The notes: generated by a model from the sequence alone, not told the origin. Shown: positions 1,782-10,423, counted from the stretch's first letter. The stretch: DNA of 11,547 nucleotides from a virus (IMGVR_UViG_2529292734_000012); one strand, 5' to 3'. Numbers and translations: made by a program.

Positions 1782-3023
1782 ATGGCACGAAAAACCACCC
1801 CACTAACTATTACGGAGATCAAAAACGCACGACCAGGGGAAAAGGAATATACCCTGCAGGATGGCGGAGGATTATTTCTTCTGGTGAAGCCCTCCGGATC
1901 AAAAATCTGGCGTTTTACGTACTACCGCCCGGCAGATAAAAAACGGACTATTATCAGCCTTGGATCGCTAAATGATGTTTCCCTGTCTGATGCCAGAGAG
2001 CGACGGAATGAATACAGGTCACTCATAGCAAAGGGAACTGACCCACAGGACTACGAACGCCGGAAACGTGAAGCAGAGAGCAGGAAAAAGGGCAACACGT
2101 TCGAAAAAGTTGCCTTGGACTGGTACGAGATGAAAAAAGGCCAGAATCTGGCTTACAACACGATTAAGGATATCTGGCGATCCCTGGAAAAATACGTATT
2201 CCCGTACATCGGAAACACGCCAATAGATACCCTCACCGCTCGCCGCTTTGTTGAGATACTCACACCCATTAAAGCACGCGGCAACCTGGAAACTCTGAAA
2301 CGCGTTTTACAACGCATCAATGAAGTGATGGATTTTGCTGCCAACAGTGGGCTGATTGACATCAACACCGCCGCGAACGTCCGCAAGGCATTCCCTTCCC
2401 CCACTAAAAAGCATATGCCAACCATCCGACCGGAACAGCTACCGCAGCTAATGCACGATTTATCGGTCGCCAGCATAGAACGGCAAACCAGATTGCTAAT
2501 CGAGTGGCAACTGCTGACCGTAGCACGCCCAGCCGAAGCAGCCGCCGCACGCTGGGAAGAAATAGATCTCGATGCCGAAACATGGACGATTCCAGCCGGA
2601 CGCATGAAGATGCGCCGTGACCATGTGATCCCTCTTTGCGGTCAGGCGATGGCTGTACTGGAAACAATGAAGCCAATCAGCGCACACAGGGAACATGTTT
2701 TTCCCAGCCTTAAAAATCCAATACTGCCAATGAGCAGCCAGACCGCTAACGCTGCATTGCGCCGGATGGGATACGCTGGTGTGCTGGTGTCTCACGGATT
2801 ACGCGCCATATTCAGTACAGCAGCGAACGAGGAAGGATTCGAGCCGGACGTAATCGAGGCCGCACTCGCACACGTGGACACGAACGAGGTAAGGCGAGCA
2901 TATAACCGAAGTAACTACCTGGAAAAACGTGTAGTACTTATGCGCTGGTGGGGTGAATTTGTGGAAGCCGCAGCAACCGGAGTGACCATAGCCAGTGGTA
3001 AAAGGGGTATCCGTGCGGTGTAA
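1782..3023 (+). CDS. int: Tyrosine site-specific integrase, P4-like family (413 aa)
   Basis: Located about 200 bp downstream of a tRNA gene. N-terminal arm-binding-like region (GLFLLVKPSGSKIWRFTYY). C-terminal catalytic motifs HGLRAIFST (H-x-x-R) and RAYNRSNY (catalytic Tyr region). Confidence 0.9.
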   Translation: MARKTTPLTITEIKNARPGEKEYTLQDGGGLFLLVKPSGSKIWRFTYYRPADKKRTIISLGSLNDVSLSDARERRNEYRSLIAKGTDPQDYERRKREAESRKKGNTFEKVALDWYEMKKGQNLAYNTIKDIWRSLEKYVFPYIGNTPIDTLTARRFVEILTPIKARGNLETLKRVLQRINEVMDFAANSGLIDINTAANVRKAFPSPTKKHMPTIRPEQLPQLMHDLSVASIERQTRLLIEWQLLTVARPAEAAAARWEEIDLDAETWTIPAGRMKMRRDHVIPLCGQAMAVLETMKPISAHREHVFPSLKNPILPMSSQTANAALRRMGYAGVLVSHGLRAIFSTAANEEGFEPDVIEAALAHVDTNEVRRAYNRSNYLEKRVVLMRWWGEFVEAAATGVTIASGKRGIRAV

Positions 3024-3026
3024 CTG

Positions 3027-3076
3027 TACAAAAAACCAGTACAACCAGTGCAAACCATGCTAAACCATCGTATAAT
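3027..3076 (+). promoter_or_regulatory. Degenerate ~9-bp tandem repeats overlapping a putative promoter (-10 TATAAT at 3071-3076)
   Basis: CCAGTACAA / CCAGTGCAA / ACCATGCTAA / ACCATCGTA in tandem, immediately followed by TATAAT. Confidence 0.35.
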
Positions 3077-3548: not shown

Positions 3549-3755
3549 ATGGAAGTAATCAGAAAAATTCTTACCCGTCAGGAAGTAAAAAATATTCTGC
3601 GCATCAAGGCAGACAGTTCGCTACAGGACATGATCAACGCCGGAAAATTCCCGAAAGGCTTCAAAATCGGTCTGCGCCGTGTTGGCTGGTATGAAGATGA
3701 GGTGCAGGCCTGGTTGAAAGAACGCGAGGAAGAAGCGCGCGGAACGGCTGCGTAA
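3549..3755 (+). CDS. alpA: AlpA-family phage transcriptional regulator / excisionase-like HTH protein (68 aa)
   Basis: Short MerR-like HTH protein (LTRQEVKNILRIKADSSLQDMINAGKFPKGFKIGLRRVGWYEDEVQAWL) with the conserved Trp-containing C-terminus typical of AlpA/Vis proteins. GAGGT RBS. Position just after the integrase as in P4-like and PICI elements. Confidence 0.75.
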   Translation: MEVIRKILTRQEVKNILRIKADSSLQDMINAGKFPKGFKIGLRRVGWYEDEVQAWLKEREEEARGTAA

Positions 3756-3903
3756 TGGTGTGAGGTGTAACGCAATGAACATAACAAAAAGCGCCCCGTT
3801 GCCGGAGCGCCCTTGTGAACAATTAACCTGCTGCGAAAAAAATGGATCAGTGCAGGGGAATTATATCAACTGTGTGAAGAAGCGCCACTATTGCCGGATA
3901 ACA

Positions 3904-3934
3904 GGCAAAGAAAAGGCCACCAGTCACGGTGGCC
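3904..3934 (-). terminator. Rho-independent terminator for the minus-strand small-gene pair
   Basis: Perfect inverted repeat GGCCACC-agtcac-GGTGGCC (3915-3934); on the minus strand it is followed by TTTTCTTTG. Confidence 0.6.
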
Positions 3935-4013
3935 CTGCGACACAAATTTCGCGTTATCCCCAACGCATGAGCATCGCCAACAATGCCACATTTGCGGCTG
4001 GTGGGCAATGCAA

Positions 4014-4202
4014 TCAGTCTGGTTCAGTTCGTTGCCATACCTGCAATGAGCGCTTTTCCCTGTACTCTTTAAGAAATTGCTCAAGGGCAAAAGCACATGG
4101 CGCGAATCTTTCTGATTCATGCTCTATCTTTCTGCGCCGTCTTTTCCGTGCCGGTGATAATGTTTTGGTCAATTCTTTATCGGTCATTGTGTTGTCCTGC
4201 AT
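4014..4202 (-). CDS. Hypothetical small basic protein (62 aa; likely start at the second Met, 4187, giving 57 aa)
   Basis: AGGA lies 8 nt upstream of the ATG at 4187. KRRRRK basic cluster. Sits downstream of the RHH-like gene and upstream of the minus-strand terminator. No family recognised. Confidence 0.45.
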   Translation of the reverse strand: MQDNTMTDKELTKTLSPARKRRRRKIEHESERFAPCAFALEQFLKEYREKRSLQVWQRTEPD

Positions 4203-4244
4203 AGCAATGCGCCGTAGTTACTCACACCACGGCGCTGGTGATGG

Positions 4245-4424
4245 TTACTCCTGCTCTTTGGCCTTGCGGCGCTGGCGGCGTTTGATCTCGCCTTGCATTG
4301 ACGCAATGATGAATTGTGATGTGCTTTCGCCTGATTCTTTCACTGATTCCATGGCGTTTACTATTTCGTGTGGTACACGAGCCTTTAGAGCTTGTGATTT
4401 TGCGTTTGTTGTACCCGTTGCCAT
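4245..4424 (-). CDS. Small ribbon-helix-helix (Arc/CopG-like) DNA-binding protein, candidate repressor (59 aa)
   Basis: GAGGAA RBS 6 nt upstream of the ATG at 4424. Sequence MATGTTNAKSQALKARVPHEIVNAMESVKESGESTSQFIIASMQ fits a beta-strand/helix/helix RHH pattern. Divergent from the + strand operon promoter. Confidence 0.55.
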   Translation of the reverse strand: MATGTTNAKSQALKARVPHEIVNAMESVKESGESTSQFIIASMQGEIKRRQRRKAKEQE

Positions 4425-4485
4425 TTCTATTCCTCTGTTGGATTGGTGGGGGACAGTATACACAGAAAAAGCACAAATAAAACCC

Positions 4486-4526
4486 TTGACGTGGGCCACA
4501 CCTAAAGCATATAGTGGGCCACACCT
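4486..4526 (+). promoter_or_regulatory. Strong sigma70-like promoter for the rightward replication operon, with 13-bp direct-repeat operators overlapping -35 and -10
   Basis: TTGACG (4486-4491), 18-bp spacer, TATAGT (4510-4515). GTGGGCCACACCT at 4491-4503 and again at 4514-4526. Confidence 0.6.
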
Positions 4527-4552
4527 TGAGATTATCAAGGTGCATAGATGCA

Positions 4553-4587
4553 AAGCCCCGCAAGTGTCGTTACCACTCGCAGGGCTT
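4553..4587 (+). ncRNA. Stable stem-loop in the leader of the rightward operon (candidate regulatory or processed RNA element)
   Basis: 14-bp stem AAGCCCCGCAAGTG / CACTCGCAGGGCTT with two mismatches and a 7-nt loop; no following U-run. Lies about 30 nt downstream of the predicted transcription start. Confidence 0.3.
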
Positions 4588-4623
4588 CTAACCACCAACG
4601 ATAGCGAAAGTATCGAGGTAGCT

Positions 4624-4830
4624 ATGTTAAATCATACCACACACCCGCAAGGGCGGGACTCGTACAACCTGAATAAATACATCTGGCGTTTTATCGCCCT
4701 GAGCACGGCACAACCGCGTGTGATTACCATTGAGGCCACCAGCGAACAGGAAGCGCGTCAGCAATCTCCTGATGGCTGCGTGATGGTATTCGCTGCCCGT
4801 ATTCGCCAGGGGGTAGGCCATGTGCAATAA
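4624..4830 (+). CDS. Hypothetical protein (68 aa), first ORF of the rightward operon
   Basis: ATG at 4624 preceded by GAGGT. It is the C-terminal portion of an otherwise implausible 356-aa frame. Overlaps the next ORF start by 11 nt. Confidence 0.4.
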   Translation: MLNHTTHPQGRDSYNLNKYIWRFIALSTAQPRVITIEATSEQEARQQSPDGCVMVFAARIRQGVGHVQ

Positions 4831-5044
4831 AACCACACCGGACGCAGCAGCCGCCGCGCTCACTACGCTGATGCACGCGCTTATTGATATTTCTGTTATT
4901 GCTGACAGGGCGCATAAACACGCAGCCAGAGAATCAGAATGCATCTTCCATTATTTAGCATTTGTGCAGCTAAAAGCCGATCAGGCACTGGATAAGGCCG
5001 GAAAAATTATCATGGCTAATGTGCAGGAGGTGCACCATGCATAA
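4820..5044 (+). CDS. Hypothetical protein (74 aa)
   Basis: GGGGGTAGG RBS. Overlaps the previous ORF by 11 nt; stop overlaps the next start (ATGCATAA). Confidence 0.4.
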   Translation: MCNKTTPDAAAAALTTLMHALIDISVIADRAHKHAARESECIFHYLAFVQLKADQALDKAGKIIMANVQEVHHA

Positions 5045-5402
5045 CCTGTCAATTTCTGACCTTAACAGCATTCAGTTTGACGAGAAATTTACCGGGCAGT
5101 TGCTGGTCAATGTGGAGAACGGGCGCATAGTGCGTAATTATCACCTGCCGGATGGTGCAATTGCCGGAAGCGTTGAAGCATTGCTGGAACTGGCGGAACG
5201 TGCGCGACTGATTAAGCCGTCAACGAGCCATCACGATGATGATCTGCATTTTACCGGATGTATGGTGAGTCACTACGAAAACGGCGTCGAGGTATCCTGC
5301 GAACGGCTGCGTGATGATTGCTGTTTCGGCACACTGCCGGAATTTATCGAGTTGCTGACCAGTTGCGGTTATCAGGTCATTCAGGGGGGTAAACATGCGT
5401 GA
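5037..5402 (+). CDS. Hypothetical protein (121 aa)
   Basis: AGGAGG 6 nt upstream of the ATG at 5037 (the in-frame ATG at 5019 lacks an RBS). Translationally coupled to neighbours. Confidence 0.5.
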   Translation: MHNLSISDLNSIQFDEKFTGQLLVNVENGRIVRNYHLPDGAIAGSVEALLELAERARLIKPSTSHHDDDLHFTGCMVSHYENGVEVSCERLRDDCCFGTLPEFIELLTSCGYQVIQGGKHA

Positions 5403-5616
5403 TGATCGTTTTAATTCCCTGAAACAGGAATTTTCCGGCGTTCCTGATAATGCAGCTGATGCGCTTTCGTCAATATCTGAAATTATGCGGGTGGCTTTTT
5501 TCTTTCTTTGCACTGATGAGCATAGGGATACAGGGCTAAATATTCTTGATATCGCCGCTAACTATGCTGATTTCGTAACGGAAACTGTTTTAAGAAAAAC
5601 AACGGGTGGGGATTAA
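5395..5616 (+). CDS. Hypothetical protein (73 aa)
   Basis: Start overlaps the upstream stop (ATGCGTGA); G-rich RBS. Confidence 0.45.
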   Translation: MRDDRFNSLKQEFSGVPDNAADALSSISEIMRVAFFFLCTDEHRDTGLNILDIAANYADFVTETVLRKTTGGD

Positions 5617-5617
5617 T

Positions 5618-5851
5618 ATGCGTGATATTTACCTCGAAACAATAGACCGCGCATTTCTTGCACTTTCTCACAGTGAAAGCATGATGGAAATATTACGCAT
5701 ATGGCTTGAAACACTTGGCGACAATGAACGCGACAAACAAAAATCAAGAATTGCCACGGCATTAATAACGCTTCTTGAGCCTGTAATAATGGAACTGCAA
5801 GAAATAGATCTATTGCACGACAGATATAAAGAACAGCACACCGGAGAATAA
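5618..5851 (+). CDS. Hypothetical protein (77 aa), predicted helical
   Basis: ATG at 5618 is 1 nt after the upstream stop, preceded by GGTGGGGA. The GTG at 5606 in the ORF track is less likely. Confidence 0.45.
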   Translation: MRDIYLETIDRAFLALSHSESMMEILRIWLETLGDNERDKQKSRIATALITLLEPVIMELQEIDLLHDRYKEQHTGE

Positions 5852-5856
5852 AAATA

Positions 5857-6156
5857 ATGAAACTTAAATATTCTGGCTTAACTGCCAGTGGCAACACTCA
5901 CCCTAAATTTACGCGCGGCGATATTTACCGCGACCAGTACGGCGGCACGGTAATGATTAAGGGCGTGGAAGAACGGCGCGTAACCTACCGCCGTGAAGGT
6001 TACGAATATGATTGCGTGATGCCTGTTTATCAGTTCCGGCGTGATTTTTCTCTGGTACAGACCGCGCCGCATAACGTGTCCACCAGCAACGCCAGGGCAC
6101 GGGCAAACATCCAGAAGCTGAAAACCATGATTAACGGATTCAGGGGTAAAAAATGA
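5857..6156 (+). CDS. Hypothetical protein (99 aa), translationally coupled to the replication ATPase
   Basis: GGAGA RBS. Stop overlaps the start of the downstream gene (ATGA at 6153-6156). Confidence 0.5.
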   Translation: MKLKYSGLTASGNTHPKFTRGDIYRDQYGGTVMIKGVEERRVTYRREGYEYDCVMPVYQFRRDFSLVQTAPHNVSTSNARARANIQKLKTMINGFRGKK

Positions 6157-7559
6157 AACTGGCACCGAACGTAAAACTGTTACCGAAAGATAAACACACT
6201 GAGGCGGTTATTTTTGCGGGTGATAATGCTCACTCCTTTGCAGAACATTACATGATTGCACAGGCCAAAAAAGCAGGCGATCCCATCCCTCCGGTTTACC
6301 TGGGCCGTTATCAGTTAAGCGAACTGGACAATTTACAGATTGTTGATGAAGGACGATACAGAGCAAAGGTCATACGCGCCGGAAACCTGGACGATATGCA
6401 GATGCTGACCATTGCCACCAAACTGGCGATCGCAGGTGTCCGGGAAGCGCGGTTACTTTCAGAGAATTTCGAACTACTGGAGGACTGGAGCGAGCAACTA
6501 CCCCGACTTAAAGAAACCTGGGAACGCGGGGAAAGTCTGGTCATGAATGGCGGAAAGCGAAAAATCACACTTCCCATCTCATGGGGTTCTGAGGGATTCG
6601 ACGCGCAGCAAAGCTACGTAATTAAGGGGCTTATTCCGGCTGAATCATTATGCAGCACCTACGGGGCCAGCGGTTCTTATAAATCGTTCCTGGCTATTTC
6701 CTGGTCGTGTCATGTTGCCACAGGTATAGCATGGGGAGGCCGCAGGGTAAGTAAGGGCGCGGTTATCTATATCGCTGGCGAAGGCAGTATGGGCGTAAAA
6801 CGCCGCGTTAAGGCGTGGGAGATAACCCACGACAAGGTGGTTACGGATTTGTGCATCGTTAACGCGCCTGTCTTCCCTGCATCGCCTGACTATGTGGAGC
6901 AGGTTATCAGGACCGCCGGATTAGTGCAAGACAGAACGGGCGAAAGGGTGCGGATGATTGTCATTGACACACTGGCCCGTTGCTTTGGTGGTCATGATGA
7001 AAATGACTCCCGCGACATGGGGGCGTTTATCCAGGGGTGTGACGCGATAAAGCAGGCCACGGGGGCCACGGTTCTGGTTGTGCATCATTCCGGCAAGGAT
7101 GAGACGAAAGGGGCGCGGGGTTCCAGTGCATTCCGTGCGGCGCTTGATGCTGAGTTCCGAATCAGTCGGGAACATTCAGAGGCTACGGCGCTGGTTGCAG
7201 CATGTACGAAGATGAAGGACGCGGAGGAGCCAAAAGAAAGCGCCTACGACCTTAAGAGCGTGGAGGTATTTACGGATCCTGAGGGTGAAGAAATCGTGTC
7301 CATGGTGGTGATTGACGTTCCCCGCGCCCCTGCTGAACTGGAGCGCATAGAGGAGGCCGGGAACAAGACGGAAAATCACACGGCTTTATGGGGTTGTATC
7401 CGGTCACGTATACAGCATGGTGATAAATGCACGATCCCGCTGCTACGTGATGACATGAAAAAGCTGGGATATGACACAAAACACCTTAAACGATGGTTAG
7501 CCAAACTGGAAAAAGACGGCGTGATTTGCGTCGATGGGGATGATGTTCACCCACTGTAA
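6153..7559 (+). CDS. Replication initiator/helicase-like P-loop ATPase (RepA/AAA_25-like RecA-fold), 468 aa
   Basis: Deviant Walker A GASGSYKS, Walker B-like MIVIDTLARCF, and VLVVHHSGKDETKGARGSSAF typical of RepA/AAA_25-type ATPases. Followed immediately by an iteron array. Confidence 0.75.
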   Translation: MKLAPNVKLLPKDKHTEAVIFAGDNAHSFAEHYMIAQAKKAGDPIPPVYLGRYQLSELDNLQIVDEGRYRAKVIRAGNLDDMQMLTIATKLAIAGVREARLLSENFELLEDWSEQLPRLKETWERGESLVMNGGKRKITLPISWGSEGFDAQQSYVIKGLIPAESLCSTYGASGSYKSFLAISWSCHVATGIAWGGRRVSKGAVIYIAGEGSMGVKRRVKAWEITHDKVVTDLCIVNAPVFPASPDYVEQVIRTAGLVQDRTGERVRMIVIDTLARCFGGHDENDSRDMGAFIQGCDAIKQATGATVLVVHHSGKDETKGARGSSAFRAALDAEFRISREHSEATALVAACTKMKDAEEPKESAYDLKSVEVFTDPEGEEIVSMVVIDVPRAPAELERIEEAGNKTENHTALWGCIRSRIQHGDKCTIPLLRDDMKKLGYDTKHLKRWLAKLEKDGVICVDGDDVHPL

Positions 7560-7760
7560 AAAGTGGGCGTTAAAAGTGGGAATAGTGGGTAATTTAACTG
7601 GAATTTAACAAAATCGCCCACTTTCCCACGTGTATACATCCCAAAAAGTGGGCACTAAAAAAATTCTTATGAAACAGTACGATATAAAACCACAAAATCC
7701 CAGGTGGGACGAAGTGGGAAACCATGAAAAGTGGGTAGAAAAAGTGGGCACAGGTGGGCG
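7550..7760. repeat. Iteron-type origin of replication: at least 9 direct and 3 inverted copies of (A)AAGTGGG flanking an AT-rich core
   Basis: AGTGGG/GGTGGG at 7562, 7575, 7584, 7647, 7704, 7713, 7730, 7743, 7754; inverted CCCACT/TCCCAC at 7550, 7617, 7624. AT-rich AATTTAAC x2 at 7591-7609. Lies directly 3' of the rep ATPase gene. Confidence 0.65.
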
Positions 7761-7761
7761 C

Positions 7762-8013
7762 ATGACCAGAAAAACCAGAGATAAGACAGCACCAAAATAT
7801 CGCGCATTAGACATGACAGAGCACGCCTTAAAGGTGGCAATCAGAACGATAGACCGCCACGCCGGAGAAGGATACGCGAAAGCACATCCCGAACTGATAA
7901 GCGCATTCATGACCACGACGGCGGCAAATTTTGCCACGCTGACAGAGCGGGAGATTGCCGAAGCGGAACAGGTAACAACAATCAACGTTAAAACCGGAGA
8001 GGTGGAATCATGA
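7762..8013 (+). CDS. Hypothetical protein (83 aa)
   Basis: ATG at 7762 preceded by AGGTGGG. The longer frame from 7630 would run through the iterons and is rejected. Stop overlaps the SSB start (ATGA). Confidence 0.45.
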   Translation: MTRKTRDKTAPKYRALDMTEHALKVAIRTIDRHAGEGYAKAHPELISAFMTTTAANFATLTEREIAEAEQVTTINVKTGEVES

Positions 8014-8432
8014 CAGCACAGATAGCGGCTTACGGGCGGCTGGTGGCTGACCCGCAGTTAAAGACCACTAGCAAAGGGACACAAATGGCGATGGCGAGTA
8101 TGGCGGTTCCCCTGCCGTGCAGCCAGGCAGATGACGGAACGGCGACGATGTGGTTATCTGTCCTGGCGTTTGGCAGACAGGCCGACGCACTGGCAAAACA
8201 CCACAAAGGCGAACTGGTGAGCGTGGCGGGTAACATGCAGGTGAGCCAGTGGACAGGCCAGAACGGGGAAACGCGGCAGGGCTGGCAGGTTATTGCAGAC
8301 AGCGTAATCAGTGCGCGAACGGCGCGACCGGGCGGCAAAAAAGGTCAACAGGGCCAGGCTACTGACGCGCTGAACAGGGCAAAACAACAGGCGGGAAATG
8401 ATGATCCGTACGGGGATAACATACCGTTTTAA
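8010..8432 (+). CDS. ssb: Single-stranded DNA-binding protein (SSB-like, 140 aa)
   Basis: OB-fold-like N-terminal region and an acidic C-terminal tail ending DDPYGDNIPF, resembling the SSB DDDIPF tail. GGAGAGGTGG RBS. Confidence 0.7.
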   Translation: MTAQIAAYGRLVADPQLKTTSKGTQMAMASMAVPLPCSQADDGTATMWLSVLAFGRQADALAKHHKGELVSVAGNMQVSQWTGQNGETRQGWQVIADSVISARTARPGGKKGQQGQATDALNRAKQQAGNDDPYGDNIPF

Positions 8433-8445
8433 GCAACGAGTAACA

Positions 8446-8470
8446 GAGGCCGGAGCAATCCGGCTTTTAT
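8446..8470 (+). terminator. Rho-independent terminator ending the replication module
   Basis: GCCGGA-gcaa-TCCGGC hairpin followed by TTTTAT. Confidence 0.6.
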
Positions 8471-8493
8471 CAGTTGAGTCCGTCACACTACGC

Positions 8494-8519
8494 AAAAAAA
8501 AGGCCGGAATATTCCGACC
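8494..8519 (-). terminator. Rho-independent terminator on the minus strand (faces the + terminator)
   Basis: The minus strand reads GGTCGGA-ATAT-TCCGGCC followed by TTTTTTTT. Confidence 0.55.
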
Positions 8520-8704
8520 CTTTCATCACCAAAGAGAATAATTTATGTCTTTGAACTTGTAACGCTGTACAGAATGACACGTAACGCCGGATAAATAAAC
8601 GAAGATTGAAACTTTGCACACTATTGCATAGCAATGCATAAAGATGCCAAACAAGGCAGATGATAAAATTAACGCGACACTTTTACTAAGTATTAAGAGG
8701 TTAT

Positions 8705-9745
8705 ATGAGTGATTTATATTCGCCAGCCATGTTAATACAGGTTGTTAATGCCGAAGATATTCAATGGCAGATTAATTCTTTATTTATAAACCTGTTTTTT
8801 AAGCGAGTCGTTACATTTGAGACGCGGGATATTGCGCTTGATATTATTGACGATCCAGACATCCCGATGGCTGCATTTTGTTCCCCTATGGTTGGTAGTA
8901 AAGTCTCACGCGATGAAGGCTACGAATCAAAAGTAATTCGCCCTGGCTATATGAAGCCAAAAAGTAGTATCGACCCAAATAAAATAGCCGTTCGTCAACC
9001 AGGCGTATCACCTGAACAATTCAATGCATATTCATCACGCAGTTTCAAAATAAAGCGAGCGTTAGTAAGACAAGCGCAGGCAATTCGTGCGCGTATTGAG
9101 TGGCTTGCTGTTCAGGCGGTTACAACGGGGAAAAATATCATTGAAGGCGATGGAATTGAACGTTATGAACTGGACTGGAATATAAAACCACAAAATATTA
9201 TCACGCAGTCCGGCGGCACGGAGTGGAGCGGTAGAGATTTATCAACATTTGATCCAAACGATGACATCGAAGAGTACGCAGAAATCAGCGAAGGTACTAC
9301 AAATATCATCGTAATGGGCCGCAACGTATGGAAAAAATACCGCGCCTTTAAAGCAGTAAAAGATTGCCTTGATACTCGACGGGGATCTAATTCCGTTCTT
9401 GAAACGGCCCTGAAAAATCTTGGGGATTCTGTAAGCTTCAAGGGTTACGTTGGCGATGTTGCTATTGTGGTATATAGCGGACGTTATACCGACGAGGACG
9501 GCAAAGAAAAATATTTCCTTGATCCTGATTTGATGGTGCTTGGCAACACATCATTACAGGGCATCGTTGCCTACGGTGGCATTCAGGATCCTGAGTTAAT
9601 CAGAATGGGGCTGACTAAAGCCGAACTTGCGCCGAAAAATTACATCGTACCAGGTGATCCGGCTATTGAATATGTGCAGACGCACAGCGCACCGCAACCA
9701 ATACCGGCCCGCATCAATCGTTTTGTTACCGTTCGCATTGGTTAA
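8705..9745 (+). CDS. Phage major capsid protein, lambda gpE family (346 aa)
   Basis: Long collinear similarity to lambda gpE as I recall it: ITQSGGTEWS, FKAVK..LDTRRGSNS.LETA, GDVAIVVYSG, MVLGNT, YGGIQD. Similar length (346 vs 341 aa). AAGAGG RBS. Confidence 0.9.
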   Translation: MSDLYSPAMLIQVVNAEDIQWQINSLFINLFFKRVVTFETRDIALDIIDDPDIPMAAFCSPMVGSKVSRDEGYESKVIRPGYMKPKSSIDPNKIAVRQPGVSPEQFNAYSSRSFKIKRALVRQAQAIRARIEWLAVQAVTTGKNIIEGDGIERYELDWNIKPQNIITQSGGTEWSGRDLSTFDPNDDIEEYAEISEGTTNIIVMGRNVWKKYRAFKAVKDCLDTRRGSNSVLETALKNLGDSVSFKGYVGDVAIVVYSGRYTDEDGKEKYFLDPDLMVLGNTSLQGIVAYGGIQDPELIRMGLTKAELAPKNYIVPGDPAIEYVQTHSAPQPIPARINRFVTVRIG

Positions 9746-10105: not shown

Positions 10106-10423
10106 ATGATTGAAAGAGATAGTCAGCTACGAGAGCTATTAGATATCGATGACAAAATGAGTTTAAGCGAGCGCCTTGTTGATATGGATCAGGTAGTGGA
10201 GCTTACAACCCTTAGCCGTCGCACATTGCTAAACCTTGAGGCTCGCGGAGAGTTCCCCGAACGCGTACAGGTTACGAAAGGGCGCAAGGCATGGTATTTA
10301 AGCGAGGTTGTTGCGTGGATTAACAACATTCCGCGCGCATCAAATTATTGCCTTGTTCCCACCCCGAAAAACCTGATGCGGCGTTATGCCTCAAGATTGA
10401 ACGCGCCAGGCGTAATGCCCTGA
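10106..10423 (+). CDS. HTH DNA-binding protein (AlpA/MerR-like HTH_17 type), 105 aa
   Basis: VVELTTLSRRTLLNLEARGEFPERVQVTKGRKAWYLSEVVAWI resembles the AlpA/excisionase-type HTH. GAGGT RBS. Lies between the decoration gene and cos. Confidence 0.55.
   Translation: MIERDSQLRELLDIDDKMSLSERLVDMDQVVELTTLSRRTLLNLEARGEFPERVQVTKGRKAWYLSEVVAWINNIPRASNYCLVPTPKNLMRRYASRLNAPGVMP

Follow-up and report, generated by a model that had tools for sequence, protein, structure and literature searches.

A putative ribbon-helix-helix repressor, its candidate operators and a predicted antisense RNA in the probable control region of a capsid-forming phage-inducible chromosomal island

The window analysed here, a stretch of 11,547 nucleotides from a viral sequence (IMGVR_UViG_2529292734_000012), contains a tRNA-Pro(GGG) gene (1497-1570; identified by Rfam cmscan) and the genes for a tyrosine integrase (Phage_integrase; 1782-3023) and an AlpA-type regulator (Phage_AlpA; 3549-3755). 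The gene for an AAA_25 primase/helicase (6153-7559, plus strand) is followed on the same strand by genes for SSB, a lambda-E-type major capsid protein, decoration protein D, a second AlpA-like protein, and a Nu1-type small terminase. The second AlpA-family gene (10106-10423) is located between the decoration-protein and small terminase genes. The gene set of phage-inducible chromosomal islands of the capsid-forming kind (cf-PICIs) is present, i.e. Phage_integrase, Phage_AlpA, AAA_25 primase/helicase, SSB, Phage_cap_E, HDPD, and Phage_Nu1, and the element is an island of the cf-PICI type integrated beside tRNA-Pro, an assignment limited by the end of the window, beyond which any portal, protease, or large terminase genes would fall. 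DNA related to the control region was found in approximately 1,400-1,700 of 5,426 complete E. coli genomes, at up to six places per genome. Strains that carry the module include ZH063 (99.6% identical) and ATCC 25922, the latter with a variant of 75% identity. In a phage collection searched in DNA and protein modes, only one 16.5-kb induced element was found, and P1 and P4 were absent from the protein-level matches. The homologue sample comprised 160 related loci from IMG/VR, which yielded 145 divergent repressor/icd-like gene pairs, 87 of them unique.

Two divergent operons are present in the window, to the right of the alpA gene. The rightward (plus strand) operon contains, in this order, an icd-like gene, five small ORFs, and the genes for a DUF4222 protein, the AAA_25 primase/helicase, and SSB. 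A near-consensus promoter had been proposed for this operon in the original prediction and was recovered by our sigma-70-like scan as TTGACG (4486-4491) and TATAGT (4510-4515) with an 18-nt spacer, preceded by an A-rich tract (4464-4485). It is the sole sigma-70-like site called in 3700-5200. A single promoter-like match is not above chance (shuffled sequences gave a mean of 1.7 per region), and the promoter is credible because of its position and its conservation in homologous loci, where TTGACA-17/18-TAnnnT is found at the equivalent position, and not because of the lone match. That it drives the replication operon, as had also been proposed, agrees with its location at the head of a long, tightly packed run of plus-strand genes extending to the primase/helicase and SSB genes, and the coordinates originally given for the features of this region were within 1-2 nt of the true ones. 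No terminator-like site was called on the plus strand from 4600 to 8800. Folding places an 8-bp hairpin, CACCUUGA-N5-UCAAGGUG (4522-4542, plus strand), at the 5' end predicted for the rightward mRNA; its arms CACCTTG/CAAGGTG are found again in several island types despite differences in the adjacent operator cores.

The first gene of the rightward operon (4624-4830, plus strand) encodes an icd-like protein of 68 aa, which matches NF033153 with 70.3 bits (cutoff 25). Its structural model is of modest quality, and the fold matches obtained were generic and uninformative. The stop codon of the gene overlaps the start of the next one, and from there to the primase gene each ORF overlaps or adjoins its neighbour. 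Blocking translation of the icd-like gene could therefore lower expression of the whole operon, since the genes overlap and no terminator was called up to 8800. An Icd-like protein encoded in a six-gene cluster with a primase is the likely effector of phage-gene-triggered growth arrest according to a preprint (10.1101/2023.04.06.535777), and such a role would be a reason for tight double control of the gene. The icd-like frame is open for approximately 860 nt 5' of the ATG (3760-4830, plus strand). Many database entries of the icd-like protein are N-terminally extended (97-118 aa versus 67-68 aa). Such extensions would hide both the leader and the predicted antisense RNA described below, and the 'long N-terminal extension' mentioned in 10.1101/2023.04.06.535777 may be an upstream open frame of this kind.

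The leftward operon begins with the gene for a 59-aa protein of the YlcI/YnfO family (4245-4424, minus strand; ORF call), the putative master repressor, with GAGG located 7 nt 5' of its ATG. The protein matches the YlcI/YnfO model NF041551 of NCBIfam over residues 9-50 (67.4 bits, cutoff 30, E = 7.9e-19) and has no Pfam match at E <= 0.01; sub-threshold Pfam matches of family members, namely CB_ParB_C (best 3e-4, in 10 of 38), Arc (0.012), and RHH_5 (0.15), are mixed with unrelated weak ones. PDB searches with the sequence and its profile were empty or at chance level, and Foldseek found nothing when the model was compared with the PDB. At the sequence level, these searches place the protein in the YlcI/YnfO family only, and none gave a significant match to a curated ribbon-helix-helix (RHH) family. 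The AlphaFold model, built on 38 homologues, has a pLDDT of 90 and consists of an extended N-terminus and two helices, i.e. the N-terminal beta-strand followed by two helices of the RHH class. The model matches known RHH repressors, and we assign the 59-aa protein to the RHH fold, in agreement with what had been anticipated for the product of the divergent gene. Arc and Mnt sequences were aligned with it by hhalign (18.6% and 0.6% probability, respectively), and the alignment was used only to set the register of the beta-strand. No functional study of the YlcI/YnfO family was found in the literature searched.

The repressor gene is followed by an ORF of 62 aa (4014-4202, minus strand; phrog_21027, 1.6e-15), a conserved operon partner that is found at this position in many loci of different repressor types and varies at the protein level. 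Its product is basic, carries an ERFAPCAFALE(Q/K)FLKE motif, and is also encoded downstream of the Arc-like replacement gene described below; it matches no Pfam family, and its only PHROG match is one of unknown function. An ORF of 84 aa (3866-4120) was judged to be spurious, as it overlaps the conserved 62-aa ORF and has only a sub-threshold zinc-ribbon match. The operon is closed by a terminator-like hairpin (3913-3936, minus strand; 10 pairs with the tail TTCTTTGCCT in the terminator scan). The repressor gene's own promoter probably has its -10 at 4455-4460 (TATACT, minus strand), as judged from the conserved CAGTATACAC, which is kept at this position in nearly all island types and contains TATACT in its reverse complement; no good -35 was found for it, and it was not called by the promoter scan of 3700-5200. 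A second small-RNA candidate (3783-3868, minus strand) occupies the interval that separates alpA from the repressor-operon terminator. It has a perfect extended -10, TGATATAAT (3860-3868), and a canonical terminator approximately 45 nt further on (3814-3787, GGGCGCUCCGGCAACGGGGCGCUUUUUGUUAU), both of which are conserved in related loci.

The main rightward promoter is overlapped by two direct repeats of 13 bp, which proved to be exact: GTGGGCCACACCT is present at 4491-4503 and 4514-4526 (13 of 13 positions identical; 23 bp from start to start), and by our own arithmetic approximately 0.005 exact 13-mer repeats would be expected within 800 nt. The first copy begins at the last base of the -35 and the second at the last two bases of the -10. 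Within the repeats, two putative 11-bp operators with the sequence GTG-GGCCA-CAC were defined from the exact repeat and from homologues, O1 (4491-4501) covering the end of the -35 and the spacer and O2 (4514-4524) covering the end of the -10 and the start site. A degenerate third operator, O3 (GTGGGGGACAG, 4446-4456), is predicted over the repressor's own promoter. In the window O3 matches O1 at 8 of 11 positions, and a search allowing <= 2 mismatches did not find it; we count it as a predicted site because it is degenerate here and was placed by positional homology only.

Approximately 17 types of repressor beta-strand were distinguished among the 145 pairs (87 unique), each with its own 11-bp GTG-N5-CAC core. 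The type-specific core immediately follows both the -35 (O1) and the -10 (O2, inverted in some island types) and usually recurs approximately 45 bp to the left of O1, beside CAGTATACAC (O3). The O1 11-mer has on average 10.3 of 11 matches in the O2 region of its own locus versus 7.4 in loci of other types, and the corresponding values for O3 are 8.7 and 6.9. In the protein, variability is highest at residues 12 and 14 (2.7 and 2.5 bits, respectively), which are flanked by the invariant S10 and R16. These two residues track the operator core, and the alternate-residue pattern is that of a strand predicted to face the DNA. In the register given by hhalign (a weak alignment of 18.6% probability to Arc), residues 12, 14, and 16 lie opposite Q9, N11, and R13 of Arc, which are its base-contacting residues. 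The same residue pair is associated with near-identical cores, e.g. S,T with TAAGA or TAAGC and L/M,T with TGTTT or TATTT. Operator and protein co-vary. Part of this co-variation is simple linkage, because the gene and the sites adjoin each other, but linkage is insufficient, because three sites change together and the variable residues sit on the predicted DNA-facing strand. The suggestion that the repeats are operators of the RHH protein is supported by these concerted changes of cores and predicted DNA-reading residues across island types, and it is extended here by a putative third, autoregulatory site at the repressor promoter.

Between the main promoter and the icd-like gene lies a further hairpin, which had been described as a leader stem-loop lacking a U-tract and resembling the processed immunity RNA of P4. 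The plus-strand hairpin exists (4553-4587; 12 Watson-Crick pairs, two C·A mismatches, -16.3 kcal/mol) and indeed lacks a U-tract, and the plus-strand leader folds better than shuffled sequences (z = -4.3). The more stable form, however, is that of the minus strand, an uninterrupted 15-bp stem (-27.2 kcal/mol, z = -6.5) that includes two G·U pairs and runs into UUUGCAU. All 42 distinct hairpin variants favour the minus strand, typically by 4-11 kcal/mol. In an RNAalifold consensus of 33 distinct sequences, two elements were recovered, the terminator hairpin and a 5' stem-loop, comprising 24 pairs with 97.5% of cells paired; nine pairs show compensatory changes, and 0 of 500 shuffles reached the observed covariation. 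The terminator stem alone (helix 2) accounts for 13 pairs, nine of them compensatory, with 95.6% of cells paired and a score that was again reached by 0 of 500 shuffles. Read on the minus strand, these 33 homologues contain 132 G·U cells versus no A·C or C·A among the unpaired cells, and the structure is therefore maintained in the minus-strand RNA. The hairpin structure is under selection on the minus strand, which is the antisense strand relative to the rightward operon.

We read this hairpin as the predicted intrinsic terminator of an antisense RNA (4552-4588, minus strand, with a U-rich tail at 4545-4551), based on its fold and covariation. The tails are U-rich in many types, e.g. GGGGCGUUGUUUUUU, and only moderately so in the window. 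A simple terminator scan called the homologous hairpin in one of three homologues (L080, not L021 or L014) and did not call it in the window. Rfam cmscan of the whole window on both strands (E <= 1) returned only the tRNA and two chance matches elsewhere, and no C4. The likeness to the P4 immunity RNA was accordingly given up, with no such family detected at this threshold and a pairing pattern in the homologues that is that of a minus-strand RNA. Pairing of the hairpin loop with a 7-nt loop located downstream, as between seqB and seqC of P4, was also considered and rejected, as the same hairpin type occurs with many loops.

The antisense RNA itself is predicted to be approximately 80 nt in length (4545-4625, minus strand) from its promoter, terminator, and consensus fold. 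Extending from about 4624 to about 4546, it would be complementary to the icd-like gene's leader, Shine-Dalgarno sequence (4615-4618), and start codon (4624-4626). Its candidate extended -10, TGGTATGAT (4631-4639, minus strand), lies inside codons 3-6 of that gene and is one of two matches to TGNTATRAT in the window, where 0.69 would be expected. A -10-like hexamer is present at a fixed distance of 29-30 nt from an invariant tract in 87 of 88 unique modules, 80 of which also have TGn; the sole common amino-acid change at this element (H to Y) gives TGGTATAAT. Over roughly the first 18 codons of the icd-like gene, synonymous diversity is near zero. The evidence for the antisense -10 is suggestive only, because its overlap with conserved codons leaves promoter constraint and coding constraint inseparable, and no -35 was found for this candidate promoter. 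There are no minus-strand genes to the right of the hairpin. From these features, the most likely reading of this strand is an antisense RNA of approximately 80 nt covering the icd-like gene's ribosome site and AUG.

Two further elements are present within the region covered by the predicted RNA. The invariant tract, TCTAACCACCAACG (4587-4600), identified by conservation, is single-stranded in both predicted RNAs and is retained even when the ribosome site downstream of it and the gene's N-terminus are different. Beside the Shine-Dalgarno sequence lies a stem-loop, CGATA-N7-TATCG (4599-4615), in which an invariant stem encloses a hypervariable 7-nt loop (4604-4610; GCGAAAG). In related islands this loop occurs as 13 discrete purine-rich alleles, e.g. 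GCGAAAG, GCAACAG, ACGAGAG, and GAAAGCG, with invariant flanks. The alleles assort almost independently of the repressor type, the hairpin type, and codon 2, and the loops were identical in the 13 pairs in which both flanks are >= 98% identical. In the two cases of co-resident islands, each from one IMG genome (L019/L111 and L005/L066), the islands differ in repressor beta-strand type, hairpin type, and loop allele.

Considering these features together, we propose that the region from 4245 to 4640 is the control switch of the island, in which an RHH repressor would act on GTG-N5-CAC operators and an antisense RNA would act over the start of the icd-like gene. We regard this reading, which is drawn from sequence comparison and modelling, as probable, at roughly two chances in three. 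In the first layer, the 59-aa RHH protein would be made from the weak leftward promoter, and its dimer or dimers would bind the 11-bp operators. Occupancy of O1 and O2 on the -35 and -10 would shut off the operon running from the icd-like gene through the primase/helicase gene to the SSB gene, and the weaker O3 on the repressor's own promoter would provide autoregulation. In the second layer, an antisense RNA of approximately 80 nt would start near the icd-like start codon, from the extended -10 within codons 3-6, and the hairpin at 4552-4588 would serve as its terminator and not as a leader structure of the rightward mRNA. This RNA would pair with the Shine-Dalgarno sequence and AUG of leaky rightward transcripts and block translation of the icd-like gene; as the downstream genes overlap, the whole operon would probably be expressed at a lower level too. 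Override of the switch by AlpA or a helper, via read-through from alpA across the repressor operon, is one possibility.

Other explanations for the hairpin and for the repeats were weighed against this proposal. If the hairpin were instead a plus-strand leader structure giving rise to a stable processed immunity RNA, as in the case of P4 CI or P1 C4, its location in the leader between the promoter and the icd-like gene would be as expected, c4 of P1 immI being located in the leader between promoter and icd, and the better-than-shuffled folding of the plus-strand leader (z = -4.3) would be accounted for. This explanation is nonetheless very improbable, given that Rfam gave no match including C4 on either strand at E <= 1, that 42 of 42 variants fold better on the minus strand, and that the plus strand would have A·C mismatches in place of the 132 minus-strand G·U cells, with no cell of the opposite type observed. 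One hairpin type is also combined with many different downstream loops, so that co-varying target boxes are absent. The structural evidence fits equally well with a minus-strand hairpin that is a mere insulator, protecting the promoter and repressor region from stray antisense transcription and yielding a short RNA with no regulatory role, and the confounding of the antisense promoter by coding constraint also leaves room for this. We consider it unlikely, though it deserves more weight than the other alternatives: there are no minus-strand genes on the right to be terminated, 87 of 88 modules keep the extended -10 at an unchanging distance (29-30 nt) from the invariant tract, the predicted transcript exactly spans the Shine-Dalgarno sequence and AUG, and an invariant stem with a hypervariable loop beside the Shine-Dalgarno sequence is hard to account for in an insulator.

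For the repeats, it may be asked whether the 59-aa RHH protein is the antitoxin partner of the 62-aa ORF, with the repeats having no role beyond autoregulation of this pair. However, the opposite, rightward promoter carries the two best operator copies, the protein's own promoter carries only the degenerate one, and no recognisable toxin gene was found beside the RHH gene, the 62-aa protein having no Pfam match and matching only a PHROG without a known function; this explanation has little to recommend it. Equally, the repeats might be sites for another protein, such as AlpA, a replication initiator, or a host factor, with the RHH protein acting elsewhere, and AlpA is indeed the published activator of such islands. 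Against this, the cores differ in step with the beta-strand type of the RHH protein, the variable residues of which are predicted to face the DNA, and an island of O157:H7 with a non-orthologous Arc-like RHH protein has yet another repeated palindrome (AGGTGGTCACCT, two copies). We regard this as the least credible of the explanations considered.

The proposed switch, i.e. the RHH repressor with its operators and the antisense RNA, resembles several known systems in part. P22 immI combines the Mnt and Arc RHH repressors with the divergent promoters Pant and Pmnt, operators over the strong promoter, and the sar antisense RNA made from within the operon. The window shares with it a small RHH protein (here a putative repressor), divergent promoters, operators over the strong promoter (here candidate sites), and a short antisense RNA (here predicted) against a downstream ribosome site. 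It differs in that no sequence relationship beyond the fold was found (hhalign probabilities of 18.6% for Arc and 0.6% for Mnt), in having three GTG-N5-CAC sites versus the Arc and Mnt operators, in having the icd-like head of a replication operon where P22 has the antirepressor, and in belonging to a satellite island rather than a phage. P1 C4 and P4 CI RNAs are cut from a sense-strand leader and act on separate target boxes. P1 immI (c4, icd, and ant) and P4 CI are similar to the window in placing an RNA-level check (predicted in the window) just before an icd-type gene on whose translation the downstream genes probably depend, but the conserved structure in the window is on the opposite strand and has no Rfam C4 match. 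In the SymR/SymE system of E. coli, a cis-antisense RNA is made from a promoter in the first codons of a toxic gene, with LexA as the transcriptional repressor. The predicted antisense promoter within the first codons, the RNA over the Shine-Dalgarno sequence and AUG, and the two control layers on a small, probably harmful protein are all reminiscent of this system, although the sequences are unrelated, the repressor there is LexA, and there is no mobile-element context. YlcI and YnfO, encoded in the cryptic prophages DLP12 and Qin of E. coli K-12, belong to the same NCBIfam family as the 59-aa protein; their genes belong to lambdoid late regions and are not known to face a divergent promoter.

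In phage-inducible islands of Gram-positive bacteria, Stl/Rpr is the master repressor, and its repression ends when it forms a complex with a specific protein of the helper phage (PMC6092414). The divergently transcribed repressor gene facing the satellite's excision/replication operon is a common feature, and the difference is that the putative repressor here is a 59-aa RHH protein. In E. coli phage-inducible islands, AlpA is the activator and is switched on by the helper phage, and AlpA over-expression alone induces the island EcCICFT073, with the question of a global repressor left open (PMC6092414); the paper on cf-PICIs adds only that alpA is required. The literature searched contained no description of the present switch, nor of an RHH repressor or antisense RNA in PICIs, and nothing relevant on a small RNA linked to Icd-like genes or on the invariant leader sequence. 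A master repressor has been reported as unclear for such islands in Gram-negative bacteria, and the 59-aa RHH protein may fill this role. The locus provides a concrete candidate repressor with mapped putative operators and many natural specificity variants, together with a predicted recognition code relating residues 12 and 14 to the central 5 bp of the operator. It adds a previously undescribed candidate antisense RNA that would cover the start of the gene heading the replication operon and suggests a tentative function for the uncharacterised YlcI/YnfO family. What silences these satellites and how helpers wake them become directly testable questions.

The architecture of the region was also found with a different repressor. 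In an E. coli O157:H7 island located beside roxA (strain 3384; L163), the same hairpin, the invariant TCTAACCAACAACG, and the -10-like element are present together with an icd-like gene having a different N-terminus. This island lacks a YlcI-family gene; the repressor position is occupied by an unannotated 63-aa ORF (2742-2933, minus strand) with an Arc-like PQFRMRISPEL motif, followed by the 62-aa ORF (2511-2699, minus strand), as in the window, and upstream there are two copies of a different palindrome, AGGTGGTCACCT. Exchange of the RHH/operator cassette thus leaves the architecture in place. In a more general and tentative reading, which we think somewhat less likely to hold than to fail, the master repressor of Gram-negative PICIs and cf-PICIs would exist as exchangeable RHH/operator cassettes, with at least 13 YlcI-type specificities and Arc-like replacements, backed by an antisense RNA whose hypervariable 7-nt loop (13 alleles) would confer another specificity that assorts on its own. 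The two combined would sort co-resident satellites into immunity or incompatibility groups, and induction by helper phage or AlpA would have to defeat them. Under such a scheme, a repressor of this kind would have been overlooked because its gene is only approximately 60 aa in length and is often unannotated or hidden under a spurious opposite-strand ORF. In the RefSeq annotation of the O157:H7 island (L163), 2299-3042 is assigned to a 247-aa hypothetical protein on the plus strand, which spans the 63-aa ORF, the 62-aa ORF, the AGGTGGTCACCT repeats, and the hairpin.
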